IMG/VR virus record: IMGVR_UViG_2740892442_000009
Strand: one strand, 5' to 3'
DNA from: a virus
Taxonomy: Duplodnaviria > Heunggongvirae > Uroviricota > Caudoviricetes
Length of the DNA: 5,775 nucleotides
Shown piece after piece: positions 1,645-5,775 of this stretch. The notes beneath the pieces are model-generated. The model was not told where the DNA came from and did not search any database. It saw only the letters and a list, made by a program, of their open reading frames with translations. The first letter of the stretch is position 1. Every line of letters begins with the position of its first letter. The translations under genes and the position numbers were made by a program.

Positions 1645-1727
1645 GAGGTGTTGCTGGTAAAGTTAGGTATTGGATCAATGAGTGAGTCAATATAATATTA
1701 AACTCACAATTATAAATCAGCCATATA

Positions 1728-3184
1728 TTAGGAGCGCCAAAAAAAAACTGAAAACAATATAATAACAGGATAAATTTCAAGGCGACCAAGAATCATAGCT
1801 ATGCACATTAAATATTTTGCAATGTCATTAAGCACTCCGAATGACGATGCAGTAGCCCCAAAACCTAATCCCATATTATTAATACATGCAGCCACTGTTG
1901 CAAATGATGTAAGAAAATCATATCCCATACCATTTAACACCAGTATAAAAAACACCGTGAAGAGAGTATAAAGAAAAAAGAAACTCCATACAGACCTCAT
2001 TACACGATCTGTAACTATCTTCCCTCCTACATTTACACTCAACAACGCTCTGGGATGAGAAAGCTGATTTATCTCGTGTTTGCTTTGTTTGAAAAGTATA
2101 AGAAATCGAAGTGACTTAATTCCACCACAAGTTGAACCTATACATCCCCCAAAGAAACTTGACAACAGCAAAAACACTATCGTGTGCGTGGGCCAGTTTG
2201 CATAATCTTGCGTAGCTAAACCATTATCAGTGAGCATGGAGCTGGCAAGAAAAAACGAATGAATAAAACTTCCATGCAAGTCATACATACCTATATGCCA
2301 GACCTGGAAAGAGGTAACAATGATCACCACTAAGGCTATTAACAGAAAGAAACGAAGTTCAATATCTCTGATTAAAGGTTTTATCGTTTTTCTGCTAATA
2401 ACAATATACCAAAGAGTAAAGTTGAAAGCCGATAGCAGGGAAAAAGCACCAGCCACCAGCTCAACCAAATAGTTATTAAAATATCCGATACTCTCGCTAT
2501 GAGTTGAGAAACCACCAAGCGAAACTGTGGAAATCCCGTGACAAATAGCATCAAACAAAGGCATTCCTGCAAGTCTATAACAGACAATACAAGCAATACC
2601 TAATAAAGAATAAGTTATCCACAGTGTCCGTGACGTATCGGCCAGGCGGGGAGTGAGTTTGTCATCCTTAAATGGCCCCGGCATTTCTGACTGATAAAGC
2701 TTTGCACCACCAATACCCAATAATGGCAATACTGCAACCGCCAGAACAATAACTCCTAAACCACCTATAAAATTTAACTGTGACCGATAGTACAAATATG
2801 CCCGAGGTAATGAACTAACATCATCAATTACAGTTGCTCCTGTTGTTGTTATTCCAGAAACCCCTTCAAACAGAGCATCAATGAACGTTAAATTAAGTTC
2901 TGAGTCAATCCATAAAGGGAATGCACTAATAACAGAAAACAAAATCCAAAACATTACAATTATAATAAACCCATCACGGTACGTAATTGAATGCCAGATT
3001 TCTTAGTTGTATACCACGCTCCGCCACCAATGCAAAAAAATATAACGAAAGTTATAAAGAAAACGAACAGGCTTTTTTCTTTATAAAACAATGCTACAAC
3101 CATTGGTGGCAACATTGAAAGACTATAGAGCCAAACCAGGAACCCACACATATGAGTAACAACTCTTACATGAGATGTATTCAT
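1728..3184 (-). pseudogene. trkG: TrkG/TrkH-family potassium uptake protein, disrupted by a 1-bp frameshift (prophage moron)
   Basis: Two same-strand ORFs in different frames. ATG at 3184..3182 gives MNTSHVRVVTHMCGFLVWLYSLSMLPPMVVALFYKEKSLFVFFITFVIFFCIGGGAWYTTKKSGIQLRT and then terminates (VMGLL*, stop at 2962..2960); the track's TTG start at 3202 is 6 codons upstream. The second frame (408 aa, 1728..2954) is open upstream of its ATG and reads RDGFIIIV-MFWILFSVISAFPLW..., continuing the same multi-pass membrane protein. Joining the pieces gives 69 + 8 + 408 = 485 aa, the length I recall for E. coli TrkG. One base appears to be missing from a G-run at plus 2978-2979 (ACGGT where ACGGGT would restore the frame). 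The region is markedly AT-rich relative to its flanks. Confidence 0.8.
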
Positions 3185-3321: not shown

Positions 3322-3786
3322 TTACTTTAAACACTGTTCGGTTATGTATTGCTGAGCACCTTCAAGTTGGGCCTGCATCATTACCAGTCGTTCCCGGAGG
3401 GTGAAATAATCCCGTTCAGCGGTGTCTGCCAGTCTGGGGGAGACTGCATTATCCACGCTGGAGGTGGCGGTGGCTTCACGCACTGACTGACAGACTGCTT
3501 TGATGCGCAACCGACGACGACCAGCGGCAACATCATCACGCAGAGCATCATTTTCAGCTTTCGCATCAGCTAACTCCTTCAGGTATTTTGCATCGAGTGC
3601 AGCAACATCACGCTGGCGTATCTGCATGTCAGTAATGATTGCGGTCGCCTGGTTGAGTTTTTCCGTCACATTATCGCGTTGCGCTTTGTAGGTAATGGCA
3701 TTATCACGGTAATGATTAACAGCCCATGACAGGCAGACGATGATGCAGATAACCAGAGCATAAATAATCACGGCAACTCTGCTCAC
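3322..3786 (-). CDS. Rz: Rz i-spanin (inner-membrane spanin subunit)
   Basis: The translation (…[37 protein letters not shown]…[90 protein letters not shown]) closely resembles lambda Rz: N-terminal TM helix followed by coiled-coil. I place the start at GTG 3786..3784, which overlaps the endolysin TGA stop (GTGA), mirroring the ATGA coupling in lambda and giving 154 aa. The track's start at 3801 is a TTG. Confidence 0.8.
3381..3566 (-). CDS. Rz1: Rz1 o-spanin (outer-membrane lipoprotein), fully embedded in Rz in the +1 frame
   Basis: ATG at 3566..3564 preceded by a strong SD (AAGGAG, 7-nt spacer). The product [61 protein letters not shown] has a lipoprotein signal with a lipobox Cys and a proline-rich mature part, and is near-identical in pattern to lambda Rz1. 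Confidence 0.85.
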
Positions 3787-4316
3787 TGCTCTATCCCCCA
3801 ACAGGCTAATGCGCTCTCCTGATCACGACGAATAACCTGACCGTAACAGTTATTTGAACGAAGGCGGCAATCGCGCCCCCTGTCCTTAATCCACCAGCGA
3901 ATCGCCTCGCAGGCACCTTTACGATCACCTGCATTCAGCCGCTTATAAAATGTCGACGGAAAACACTTAGCGGGGCCAATGTTATAGGGACAAAATGACG
4001 CGATACCCGCTTTTTGTGGTTCGGTCAGTGTTACTTTAATATTGCGATCCACCCATGCCAGCGCCTTATCACGCTCAATGGCATTAACCTGATCGCATTT
4101 TTCCTTCGTCAGCCTCATTCCCGGTATGACGGGCTTACCATCCACCATTGTGGCACCACGACAGATGGTCCATATACCGGAACCATCGCGGTATGCCGTT
4201 GTGTGGTTACCTTCTTTTTCATCCAGAAACTGGTCGAGAATATCAGGCGCAGGCGCACCGACGGCAATCAGTGCCAGAACGGCAGCCGACAGGCCGTATC
4301 TGATTTTTGCGTTCAT
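3783..4316 (-). CDS. R: Phage endolysin, GH24 (T4-lysozyme-like) with N-terminal signal-anchor-release (SAR) domain
   Basis: 177 aa. N-terminal weakly hydrophobic Gly/Ala-rich segment ([18 protein letters not shown]) typical of a SAR domain. Catalytic E-x8-D-x5-T triad present ([16 protein letters not shown]). It resembles the 177-aa R lysozymes of Stx-type lambdoid phages as I recall them. No canonical SD upstream of the ATG (…GATAAATATCCATG). Confidence 0.9.
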
Positions 4317-4421
4317 GGATATTTATCAGGATTTATCGGTTTCTGAACCCTGGATATGTTTATCTGTCCCGGCCTGTTGAATCAGGCAAGGAATAGTTAA
4401 ATACAATAGAGAGGATTATTT

Positions 4422-4694
4422 ATGGACAATAGCACCATTTCTCTACAGGAGTTGCTCGACTGCATTTCCAGGCTTCGGGATGATGTAAATGCCCTTACTG
4501 TCGCATTTTCATATCTGGCATTCTCAATTCCCAAGGAACAAATGCAACCAACACTGGCATCGCTCCAGCTTGAATCACTCAACCCCAAATGGTCCCAGCA
4601 ACAACAAAATTCTTTCAAGTGGCTGGCGGTATTACTGGAAGAAAAATATGCTGGTGAAATTACCATTTCGGCGGAGTCTTCAGTGAACCAGTAA
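4422..4694 (+). CDS. Hypothetical 90-aa protein, the only plus-strand gene candidate; convergent with and overlapping the 114-aa ORF
   Basis: ATG at 4422 preceded by a strong SD (AGAGAGG at 4408-4414, 7-nt spacer). The translation is protein-like, helical and acidic (MDNSTISLQELLDCISRLRDDVNALTVAFSYLAFSIPKEQ…) with no signal peptide or TM segment. A TTGAAT / TACAAT pair lies upstream but with poor spacing. I do not recognise the family. Confidence 0.45.
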   Translation: MDNSTISLQELLDCISRLRDDVNALTVAFSYLAFSIPKEQMQPTLASLQLESLNPKWSQQQQNSFKWLAVLLEEKYAGEITISAESSVNQ

Positions 4695-5004
4695 TTCTTC
4701 CCGGCAGTTTTCCTTTGTAGGTTATCCGCACACCCTGCGCCTCTAAAATTATGGGGCGCTTTTCCGGTGACTGCTCATCCCCTTCACATAACCCGGCAGC
4801 AACATCCAGGAAGACCTGTCTGATGCTTCTTCTGGCTGCTGCCTCATAAAACTCCAGCGCGGCACCTTCAACACGGTCCAGCGAGATGTCCAGGTCTAAA
4901 ATTTCACCGTCAAAGCGTTTTTTGTCCCGTAACGCTAAAGTTACCGTAACTTTATTCTCAAAATTGCGGATCCCTTTCACAATCAGTTCATAGTTTTGAG
5001 TCAT
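4660..5004 (-). CDS. Hypothetical 114-aa phage protein between holin and endolysin (position analogous to ydfR in the Qin prophage; family unverified)
   Basis: ATG at 5004..5002, four nucleotides after the holin TAA stop (5011..5009), with a strong SD (GGGGAGAG) inside the holin 3' end, indicating translational coupling. Soluble, charged protein (MTQNYELIVKGIRNFENKVTVTLALRDKKRFDGEILDLDISLDRVEGAALEFYEAAARRSIRQ…). Confidence 0.65.
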   Translation of the reverse strand: MTQNYELIVKGIRNFENKVTVTLALRDKKRFDGEILDLDISLDRVEGAALEFYEAAARRSIRQVFLDVAAGLCEGDEQSPEKRPIILEAQGVRITYKGKLPGRITGSLKTPPKW

Positions 5005-5008
5005 TGAA

Positions 5009-5215
5009 TTACTCTCCCCGTGCAGCCTTACGCTTATCTTCTTTAATCTTGAAATAAAGATTTGTCAGATACGTCAACAGGCCAAACACCAGACTACCCA
5101 GCACACCTATTGCTGCCCACTGTGAGGGCGTGACTCTATCGAGCAACTGTAAAAACCAGTAGCCAGCACTGCCTGCGGAGGTGCCATAGGCGACACCTGT
5201 TGTTAACTTATCCAT
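5009..5215 (-). CDS. S: Class II holin, phage-21 S-like pinholin
   Basis: 68 aa ([68 protein letters not shown]) with two TM segments and a charged C-terminal tail. It is near-identical in pattern to the phage 21 S68 pinholin as I recall it, and pinholins partner with SAR endolysins like the one present here. Confidence 0.9.
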
Positions 5216-5275: not shown

Positions 5276-5548
5276 TTACCTCCAGATCCGTTGCTGGAAA
5301 GTGCGGGACGGACGTGGTGGGCGTTCGGAATAAGGCAGCCTGACAGAGATTATCCAGTGCCGATAGTCGAGACTGAGAGCTTTCTTAACCTCGAACCCGC
5401 GCCTGCGGTAAGAATGAATCAGCCATTCGGCCTGTTCTTCAGTACATGGTGGGTGTTGGTACCAGTCGGTTTTAAATGCGTGTGAACGCCGCTCATGCCG
5501 GATGGCAAGGTCGGTATCAGAATTGTGAAATTTGGTTTTGTGCGCCAT
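5276..5548 (-). CDS. Hypothetical small basic protein (90 aa) upstream of the holin
   Basis: ATG at 5548..5546 with a weak purine-rich SD (AGAGAAAACAG). Basic, His/Arg-rich product (MAHKTKFHNSDTDLAIRHERRSHAFKTDWYQHPPCTEEQAEWLIHSYRRRGFEVKK…). It sits between a terminator and the holin, where lambdoid phages commonly carry cargo genes. Unrecognised family. Confidence 0.45.
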   Translation of the reverse strand: MAHKTKFHNSDTDLAIRHERRSHAFKTDWYQHPPCTEEQAEWLIHSYRRRGFEVKKALSLDYRHWIISVRLPYSERPPRPSRTFQQRIWR

Positions 5549-5620
5549 CTGTTTTCTCTGCTGGCGCAGCAGGTGTCAGGTGTTCAGGCTGACGTGCGAA
5601 TTGTAAACCAGAATGCCAGG

Positions 5621-5647
5621 AAAAAACAAAACCCGCCGAAGCGGGTT
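5621..5647 (-). terminator. Rho-independent terminator on the minus strand, upstream of the lysis cassette (possible tR'-like late terminator or terminator of the upstream gene)
   Basis: Minus strand reads AACCCGC-TTCG-GCGGGTT (7-bp stem, tetraloop) followed by TTGTTTTTT. The plus strand has no T-tract after the hairpin. Confidence 0.55.
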
Positions 5648-5775
5648 AAGTGCGGGTGCGTTGAGGATGCCTGACACATCAGAGGTGGCGAGGGATTTCT
5701 CCCCCGCCAGGTCTCTTACTCCTCAGGTTCGTAAGCTGTGAAGACAGCGACCTCCGTCTGGCCGGTTCGGATTCA

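Follow-up and report, generated by a model that had tools for sequence, protein, structure and literature searches.

The DNA analyzed here is a stretch of 5,775 nucleotides (referred to below as the window) from the Caudoviricetes virus record IMGVR_UViG_2740892442_000009, and the element in question is a small open reading frame (ORF) at positions 4422 to 4694 of its plus strand, which is embedded in the reverse orientation among the lysis genes of a prophage. The window is 99.98% identical to Escherichia coli TUM10008 (NZ_CP135658.1), the sole difference being a single 1-nt indel, and it belongs to a Rac-like, defective prophage. Its minus strand carries a gpJ fragment, trkG, the spanin genes Rz/Rz1 (3322 to 3801 and 3381 to 3566), the gene for a phage lysozyme acting as endolysin (3783 to 4316; 177 amino acids [aa]; Pfam PF00959 and phrog_7), a YdfR-type DUF1327 gene (4660 to 5004; 114 aa; assigned by Pfam and by the Prokaryotic Genome Annotation Pipeline [PGAP]), a holin gene of the phage-21-type class II, EssD-like kind (5009 to 5215; 68 aa; Pfam PF04971 and PGAP essD), and a hypothetical gene (5276 to 5548; a 90-aa ORF in the window annotation, phrog_1212). 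The plus-strand gene is flanked by the minus-strand holin and ydfR genes on their upstream side and by the endolysin and Rz/Rz1 genes on their downstream side, a non-contiguous operon layout in which an opposite-strand gene stands between the genes of one operon. Its 3′ end overlaps that of the 114-aa gene by exactly 35 bp (4660 to 4694), as the sequence-only reading of this DNA had stated, such that codons 80 to 90 and the stop codon of the plus ORF face the last 11 codons and the stop codon of ydfR.

The ORF extends from an ATG at 4422 to a TAA at 4692 to 4694 and specifies 90 amino acids. It is annotated by PGAP as WP_000370551.1, a hypothetical protein, and its product matches the phrog_2411 profile over its entire length (E 3.1e-59, residues 1 to 90 on positions 1 to 90 of 90). 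In UniProt the protein bears the name “Ybl58,” under which plasmid-borne entries are also present and under which no literature was found. The product is, as such, an already-annotated hypothetical protein and a full-length member of an existing PHROG family, whose records (PHROG 2411, “Ybl58,” and WP_000370551.1) give no function and do not include the orientation, cassette boundaries, leader, or contexts described here. The segment is present at nearly full length in approximately 1130 of 5426 complete E. coli genomes (about a fifth), in DNA identity classes ranging from 100% down to 87%, with one additional plasmid copy at 74%, and a total of 64 homologues of the protein were found.

Conservation of the frame across homologous prophages, which had been put forward as a check on the ORF, bore it out: the plus frame is open in all lineages, the 15 distinct full-length copies being free of stop codons throughout, and exhibits a ratio of nonsynonymous to synonymous polymorphism (pN/pS) of approximately 0.26 by the Nei-Gojobori method, with 23, 16, and 43 variable sites at the first, second, and third codon positions, respectively, and conservative amino acid replacements (mean BLOSUM62 score of +0.20). 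These comparisons identify the ORF as a true gene whose encoded protein is subject to purifying selection.

A second candidate for the coding strand is an 89-aa ORF antisense to the plus gene (4397 to 4666, minus), which has the orientation of the operon and begins with an ATG located 1 nt before the ydfR stop codon; were this ORF the real gene, if any, then the plus ORF would be its non-coding shadow. The antisense frame also returned a pN/pS of 0.26. The third codon positions of the two frames coincide, however, and pN/pS and third-position variation are therefore identical in both, so that the equality is an artifact and Nei-Gojobori dN/dS (the corresponding ratio of substitution rates) cannot discriminate between the strands. 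The strands were instead separated by ORF integrity, by the BLOSUM scores of the replacements, and by homologues found out of context. While the plus ORF is open in all lineages, the antisense frame is broken by stop codons in three of the four most divergent ones (L084, L092, and L088); its replacements are radical (mean BLOSUM62 score of −1.05); neither a Shine-Dalgarno sequence nor a family match in Pfam or PHROG was found for it; and the plus protein is conserved in remote homologues and in a plasmid copy. The 4397 to 4666 ORF was, consequently, rejected as a gene, and the notion that the plus ORF is merely its shadow is regarded as scarcely credible.

The 90-aa product is predicted to be a soluble, acidic protein (10.2 kDa; isoelectric point of 4.4; grand average of hydropathy of −0.20) with neither a transmembrane segment nor a signal peptide or lipobox. 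Modeling with AlphaFold2, based on an 18-sequence alignment, produced a three-helix bundle (helices at residues 8 to 34, 38 to 52, and 59 to 76; mean predicted local distance difference test score of 82.8) with a disordered tail at residues 81 to 90, and the conserved leucines 11, 18, 25, and 32 show heptad spacing. When 1.84 billion representatives were searched exhaustively with a profile, only 18 clusters were recovered, among them relatives that retain the length of the protein (81 to 97 aa), share 25 to 43% mutual identity in the family alignment, and display the conserved core ELLD.I..LR..VN.L..AF.YL.F...ES.N. The remote relatives, hosted by Klebsiella, Atlantibacter hermannii, and Sodalis ligni, all match phrog_2411 as well (E 6e-9 to 1e-19). 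No loci were found when family member P0068 was searched against genome contigs, and family member P0069 yielded only two loci among viral contigs. A type I toxin-antitoxin or cis-antisense RNA locus was also considered and rejected, since the product is acidic and soluble and lacks a transmembrane segment, conserved coding frames occupy both strands, and no Rfam match was obtained.

The gene is carried on a cassette of 472 bp (4327 to 4798), located between the start region of the endolysin gene and approximately codon 69 of ydfR, which was delineated by blastn comparison to the Qin prophage of E. coli K-12. Homology of the window to K-12 Qin is limited to 3783 to 4326 and 4799 to 5139 with clean breakpoints, and where the window has the cassette, K-12 carries 92 unrelated bp. 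The order in K-12 Qin is essQ-ydfR (103 aa)-rrrQ, without a plus-strand gene and with a 4-nt overlap between the ydfR stop codon and the start of rrrQ; a search for leftovers of the cassette in K-12 scored no better than shuffled sequence. The cassette is present in only approximately 1130 of the approximately 5150 genomes that possess the flanking lysis genes. The pattern at this site is thus the one expected of a moron, i.e., a sharply bounded unit that some phages possess and that close relatives lack at the corresponding position.

The insertion also has a consequence for the annotation of ydfR. Although the 114-aa protein matches PF07041 (DUF1327) with an E value of 8e-42 (residues 1 to 112 on profile positions 1 to 92), this match rests on its N-terminal 70 or so residues: K-12 YdfR matches the entire profile (1 to 93 of 93, 180 bits), whereas the C-terminal 46 aa of the 114-aa protein alone score only 13 bits (E 0.1). 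For this reason, the so-called YdfR family protein is a chimera composed of the DUF1327 N-terminal domain held in common with K-12 YdfR (approximately aa 1 to 69; 4799 to 5004, minus) and a substitute C-terminus encoded by the cassette (approximately aa 70 to 114; 4660 to 4798, minus). The ydfR frame runs into cassette DNA and terminates at the first stop codon met there; as this codon falls within the plus gene's 3′ tail, the 35-bp overlap is the result. This overlap falls within the disordered and poorly conserved tail, i.e., the least constrained part of the 90-aa protein, and its variable sites show no bias in codon position (4, 6, and 5). The C-terminal ydfR segment is open in all six divergent copies in the minus frame, being weakly constrained (pN/pS of 0.54). 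The cassette runs 104 bp beyond the stop codon of the plus gene, and this segment is open in frame with two different YdfR N-terminal domains; a search for free-standing small proteins resembling the 46-aa C-terminus returned only YdfR fragments at contig ends.

In K-12 YdfR, residues 1 to 72 bear the surface which binds the RNase E catalytic domain, and the C-terminus is a helix directed away from the domain (PMC13232886). The chimera retains approximately aa 1 to 69, and hence nearly all of the 72-residue RNase E-binding fragment, while the part replaced by the cassette is that of the helix which points away. Variants were also observed in which the cassette is present and the ydfR N-terminal domain is missing (L092, 744 to 920, and also L089 to L091); of the C-terminal frame encoded by the cassette, only a short piece (…IEANNVQITFSGKLPGRITGSL…) is left in L092, behind a stop codon. 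The overlap with ydfR is thus not obligatory for the plus gene.

Besides the coding sequence, the cassette brings a 5′ region with a leader and a Shine-Dalgarno sequence as well as a hairpin followed by four U residues that folds well only on the plus strand. The conserved non-coding 5′ region (GATTTATCGGTTTC...CCTGGATATGTT; 4330 to 4360, plus; given as 45 nt), a candidate promoter, aligns with the 5′ region of the copies at loci L098 and L229 (GATATATCGCTATC...CCTGGTTATGTT), whose proteins are less than 40% identical to that of the window and whose neighbors are unrelated to those in the window, namely, tail genes M and L. The presence of a homologous 5′ region in unrelated contexts implies, therefore, that non-coding DNA moves with the gene. 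The region includes a weak −35-like TTTATC (4332 to 4337) and a −10-like TATGTT (4355 to 4360), behind which come a GTTC(C)AGCC box and then a hairpin, while a second −10-like element, TACAAT, is located at 4402 to 4407, and promoter function of the 4330 to 4360 region is presumed. A chromosomal family member situated between dinI and bssS starts approximately 85 bp behind the dinI terminator and for that reason would need a promoter of its own.

Downstream of the candidate promoter, a leader stem-loop is predicted at 4360 to 4400 (plus), with a core formed by GCCUG (4372 to 4376) and CAGGC (4383 to 4387). It begins at the GTCCCGGCC box, which reads GTTCCAGCC in other copies, and its fold of −15.6 kcal/mol constitutes weak evidence (z = −1.95), a stronger hairpin being found in other E. 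coli-type copies. The Shine-Dalgarno sequence AGAGAGG (4408 to 4414, plus; GAGG core at 4411 to 4414) precedes the ATG by 7 nt, and GAGGATTATTTATG is invariant across all E. coli-type copies. No Rfam match was obtained in the window or in six remote loci, and ARAGORN detected no tRNA-like element in the leaders.

The weak hairpin and TTTT tract that had been noticed downstream of the gene and suggested as its terminator are present at 4737 to 4765 (plus) and represent a candidate weak intrinsic terminator, comprised of a 7-bp stem (4737 to 4743 and 4753 to 4759), a 9-nt loop, and UUUU at 4760 to 4763, located 43 nt past the plus stop codon. The fold is strand asymmetric (−16.4 kcal/mol with z = −3.3 on the plus strand versus −11.9 kcal/mol with z = −1.2 on the minus strand); in a 101-nt context, z is only −1.6, and a generic terminator scan placed the hairpin below its threshold. 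The stem is retained in divergent copies in which the loop varies, and in L088 a G·U pair is replaced by an A-U pair, improving the pairing.

Beyond the window, the gene is reversed relative to the endolysin gene in 94 of 95 E. coli-type loci and relative to the holin gene in 92 of 95, the exceptions being loci on truncated contigs. All 95 possess the ydfR segment derived from the cassette. An intact order of Q-holin-ydfR-ORF-endolysin occurs in other genomes and in isolated phages. When the 90-aa protein was compared by tblastn with 50,697 phage records, only three E. coli phages matched. Isolated phages with the cassette include Chlobot, in which Q lies upstream, and the Shiga toxin 2k (Stx2k)-converting phage phiSTEC1575-Stx2k. 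Since isolated, plaque-forming phages carry the cassette, it evidently does not prevent lysis. In phiSTEC1575-Stx2k (L232, 2165 to 3803 and 4069 to 4392), the class II holin gene, ydfR, and the cassette precede a second, different lysis set, in which two holin-family genes and an M15 peptidase gene take the place of the lysozyme gene, and another reversed accessory gene, encoding the anti-adapter IraM, lies between stx2 and the holin gene.

Remote members of the family occupy other positions. Some are located between tail genes M and L, reversed against the late genes (L098 to L100, L107, L228, and L229), and some lie beside the small terminase gene, likewise reversed (L101 and L102), while others occur in chromosomal, non-phage settings, as in Sodalis ligni (L097) and in the dinI-bssS interval (L105 and L106). 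The latter two are metagenome contigs with a distant, 92-aa member, P0076 (L105, 3001 to 3279), in the conserved enterobacterial pyrC-dinI-bssS-solA region, where it separates dinI from bssS and is oriented as its neighbors are. A plasmid copy of 92 aa with 63% amino acid identity (L085, 3007 to 3285; NZ_CP076283.1, IncF plasmid p4422IncF) is found outside any phage, where it immediately follows an autotransporter gene and has insertion sequence remnants as neighbors, and its homology to the prophage copies extends from about the start codon to just past the stop codon, i.e., over the coding sequence only. Because homologues are located between tail genes, by terminase genes, on a plasmid, and in the chromosome, the phrog_2411 family is not tied to lysis genes; the recurrent feature of its phage-borne copies is the reversed orientation inside a late operon.

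Two further features were observed at remote copies. Remote phage copies share an almost invariant 14-nt element, GATGGCTGATTAAC, approximately 20 nt before the start codon (L098, 3970 to 4000; L229; L101, 3960 to 4000; L103, 790 to 820; L224; and L107, 425 to 455). This element is the loop of a hairpin, the stems of which pair despite differing in sequence (five of eight pairs are compensatory, and 81% of cells are paired in a sample of six sequences representing four independent stems); none of 500 shuffles reached the observed score, and slid controls scored far lower. A GTTCAGCC box lies upstream of this hairpin, a second, variable hairpin is found in some copies, and the loop contains a mini-ORF, ATG GCT GAT TAA. 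The motif is absent from the window and the leader hairpin has no Rfam family; a scan of IMG/VR returned more than 120 hits, nearly all attributable to chance, with a family member downstream in only three. In addition, small late-strand ORFs of 60 to 85 aa converge on the homologue and overlap its 3′ end by 7 to 20 nt in four remote lineages (minus strand in each case: L098, 4261 to 4476; L101, 4248 to 4436; L103, 1068 to 1325; and L107, 687 to 869), which could be due to chance, to compaction, or to these ORFs being cognate partners.

Taken together, the gene is real and conserved, is mobile as a unit, and is reversed with respect to the lysis genes, and we consider it likely that it represents a reverse-oriented moron, carried on the 472-bp cassette that separates ydfR from the endolysin gene in a lysis cassette of the phage-21 type. 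Under this proposal, insertion of the cassette in the reverse orientation would have replaced the 3′ end of ydfR. By analogy to taiEcA of phage phi80 and to the general behavior of morons, the gene would be transcribed from its own promoter in the lysogen, while the late operon is silent, and its orientation would keep such transcription from driving the endolysin and spanin genes. Upon induction, late transcription antiterminated by Q would then cross the gene in antisense and dampen its expression, as it does in phi80. The product would be an acidic, cytoplasmic three-helix-bundle protein of approximately 10 kDa which most likely, though this is a guess, binds another protein and thereby benefits the lysogen, through either defense or host modulation.

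This architecture, a reversed accessory gene within a lambdoid late operon, is already known, and a single analog of it has been studied by experiment, recently, in phi80. There, taiEcA interrupts the Q-dependent late operon in reverse, is expressed constitutively in the lysogen, and is reduced in expression when Q is expressed, while atiEcA, a small adjacent gene on the late strand, encodes an antagonist which binds Tai (He et al., Nat Commun 2024, PMC11364771). The gene of the window resembles tai in interrupting a lambdoid late operon in the reverse orientation, and some remote phrog_2411 homologues are found, like tai, just upstream of packaging genes. The two proteins are nonetheless unrelated, Tai being approximately 26 kDa with its tag, whereas the window protein is 10 kDa and is encoded inside the lysis cassette; phi80 was not among the three E. 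coli phages matched in the tblastn comparison, which thus revealed no homology to Tai.

Also comparable are the morons of HK97/HK022 and bor of lambda, reportedly described by Barondess and Beckwith in 1990, Juhala et al. in 2000, and Cumby et al. in 2012. The lambda bor gene encodes a lipoprotein and is located downstream of Rz, beside the lysis genes and on the strand opposite the late operon, as is also true of the window gene with respect to neighborhood and strand. What the window gene has in common with these morons is that it is a small accessory gene of the late region, present or absent among close relatives; expression signals of its own, which they possess, are predicted for it. It differs from bor in that it lies between ydfR and R, overlaps a late gene, and specifies a protein without a signal peptide or lipobox. 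Convergent-promoter interference and cis-antisense regulation are known in temperate phages from pR/pL of coliphage 186 and from oop and paQ of lambda. These would share with the present locus the arrangement of face-to-face units with overlapping transcripts in a temperate phage, but the promoters or RNAs concerned exist for regulation, at Q or at the lysis-lysogeny switch, whereas here the reversed unit encodes a conserved protein whose family is found at more than one position.

Such interference was the function favored by the sequence-only reading, in which plus-strand transcription would collide with, or be antisense to, the late transcript and thereby tune endolysin and spanin expression and the timing of lysis, the ORF itself being secondary. 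The geometry is right for this, since a reversed unit lies between holin/ydfR and endolysin/Rz with a 3′ overlap, the hairpin with its four U residues suggests a defined plus-strand transcript, and cross-talk between a late operon and a reversed gene has been measured in phi80. That measurement, however, points the other way, as it is the reversed gene which is lowered by late transcription. A plus transcript starting near 4360 to 4415 would, furthermore, run away from R and Rz without overlapping either; its sole antisense targets would be the 3′ end of ydfR and, upon read-through, the holin gene, and the hairpin would limit such read-through. Purifying selection acting on the amino acids through conservative replacements, a plasmid copy comprising the coding sequence only, homologues at non-lysis positions and outside phages, and the retention of the cassette by plaque-forming phages likewise disagree with a regulatory locus, as does the lack of a consensus promoter in the scan. 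In lambda, moreover, Q-modified late transcription is strong and resistant to terminators. Lysis control as the function of the locus is, therefore, not supported by the comparative evidence, and we regard it as quite improbable, while collision effects of plus-strand transcription on late transcription may occur. The premise that the gene lies inside the late lysis transcript held in part: it is indeed antisense between genes of the lysis operon, but the transcript is not established in this Rac-like prophage, in which no Q is annotated and a strong, terminator-like hairpin was identified by the terminator scan on the minus strand upstream of the holin gene (5647 to 5630).

An explanation that makes more of the convergent neighbor is a two-component module akin to Tai/Ati, in which an effector expressed in the lysogen, for instance an anti-phage protein, would be paired with an antagonist expressed late, the antagonist being the substitute YdfR C-terminus in the window and the small convergent ORFs elsewhere, and in which the 3′ overlap would couple the expression of both genes reciprocally. 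The recurrence of convergent 60- to 85-aa ORFs in four remote lineages, the 104-bp segment past the plus stop codon (open with two YdfR N-terminal domains, with a pN/pS of 0.54, and present in 95 of 95 loci), and the small adjacent, effector-binding antagonist of phi80 are all consistent with such a module. Yet any reversed insertion into a compact genome will converge on a neighbor, and the plasmid and chromosomal copies have no partner. Hidden Markov model comparison detected no homology between the putative partners and the YdfR C-terminus (E of approximately 5, ranking 6 to 7 among 1586 segments), nor was any detected among the partners by pairwise BLAST or to any PHROG or Pfam family; the similarity visible by eye is confined to approximately 10 residues over the tail of the plus gene and may reflect homologous DNA. 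A relationship of the partner ORFs to the C-terminus of the 114-aa YdfR on the strength of the by-eye motif KG.L...TG.L was rejected accordingly, having failed in the hidden Markov model, pairwise BLAST, PHROG, and Pfam comparisons. A module of this type is thus considered unlikely, and the same skepticism applies to its fullest version, in which the cassette would be a mobile, self-contained, “non-contiguous” pair of genes, a reversed effector (for instance, a new anti-phage or host-modulating factor) and a late-strand antagonist for the lytic cycle, fused to YdfR in the window and free-standing elsewhere, switched on and off reciprocally with interference across the overlap, and in which the structured leader with its GATGGCTGATTAAC loop would add post-transcriptional control in remote members.

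The interpretation as a reverse-oriented moron is itself weakened by several observations. The scan for sigma-70 consensus promoters returned nothing above threshold upstream of the gene and nothing convincing at its homologues (six copies); the candidate terminator has only four U residues and overlaps the ydfR coding strand, leaving the conservation of its stem ambiguous; and no Q is annotated in this prophage, so that the proposed interplay with late transcription may not apply to it. In the PGAP annotation, no antiterminator Q was found within 6 kb upstream in the Rac-like prophage, nor was Q or a late promoter among the annotations of the window. Neither Pfam, NCBIfam, nor PADLOC returned a match to the 90-aa protein, although the PADLOC library used dates from 2023, before Tai was published (2024), and may lack it, and no significant structural neighbors of the predicted fold were obtained. 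The GC content of the cassette (45.3%) does not contrast with that of the flanking lysis genes (45.6 to 51.5%), and hence a distinct base composition, which is frequent among morons and not obligatory, is lacking. Lastly, singleton nonsense mutations were detected in 3 of 96 copies from IMG/VR and genomes, on account of which the gene is considered dispensable in some prophages.

With regard to its significance, the locus emerges as a real, mobile, self-contained unit rather than as an antisense artifact or a lysis regulator. Small genes embedded backward in prophage late operons now include orientation-dependent defense systems, as exemplified by Tai/Ati of phi80, and the presence of the 90-aa gene in about a fifth of complete E. 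coli genomes, including an Stx2k-converting phage, recommends it as a concrete choice for functional screens. In practical terms the outcome is modest, being a candidate accessory gene and no new mechanism, with the chimeric YdfR as a minor annotation point.

The remainder of the window offers a number of additional observations. The statement that every other gene lies on the minus strand does not hold, as PGAP also calls a plus-strand ORF at 5495 to 5674 (59 aa, WP_001112736.1) with a full-length match to phrog_2947 (E 1e-44). This ORF and the minus-strand, 90-aa ORF at 5276 to 5548 represent a second convergent pair, the 3′ end of the latter being overlapped by 54 bp, and the minus-strand hairpin at 5647 to 5630 lies within the plus-strand ORF. 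Relative to a complete lambdoid late region, the packaging, head, and other tail genes are all missing between the lysis cassette and the gpJ fragment: the truncated gpJ tail-tip gene (1 to 1589) abuts trkG (1727 to 3184, minus), which in turn abuts the spanin genes (3322). The trkG gene contains a 1-nt deletion in a GGG run at 2977 compared to NZ_CP135658.1 (CACGGGTAC to CACGGTAC), a frameshift which leaves two ORFs, of 80 and 408 aa, in place of the 485-aa TrkG and which could reflect either true pseudogene formation or a mistake in sequencing or assembly. A Hok/Gef gene is located just past the right end of the window (L001, 7474 to 7572).

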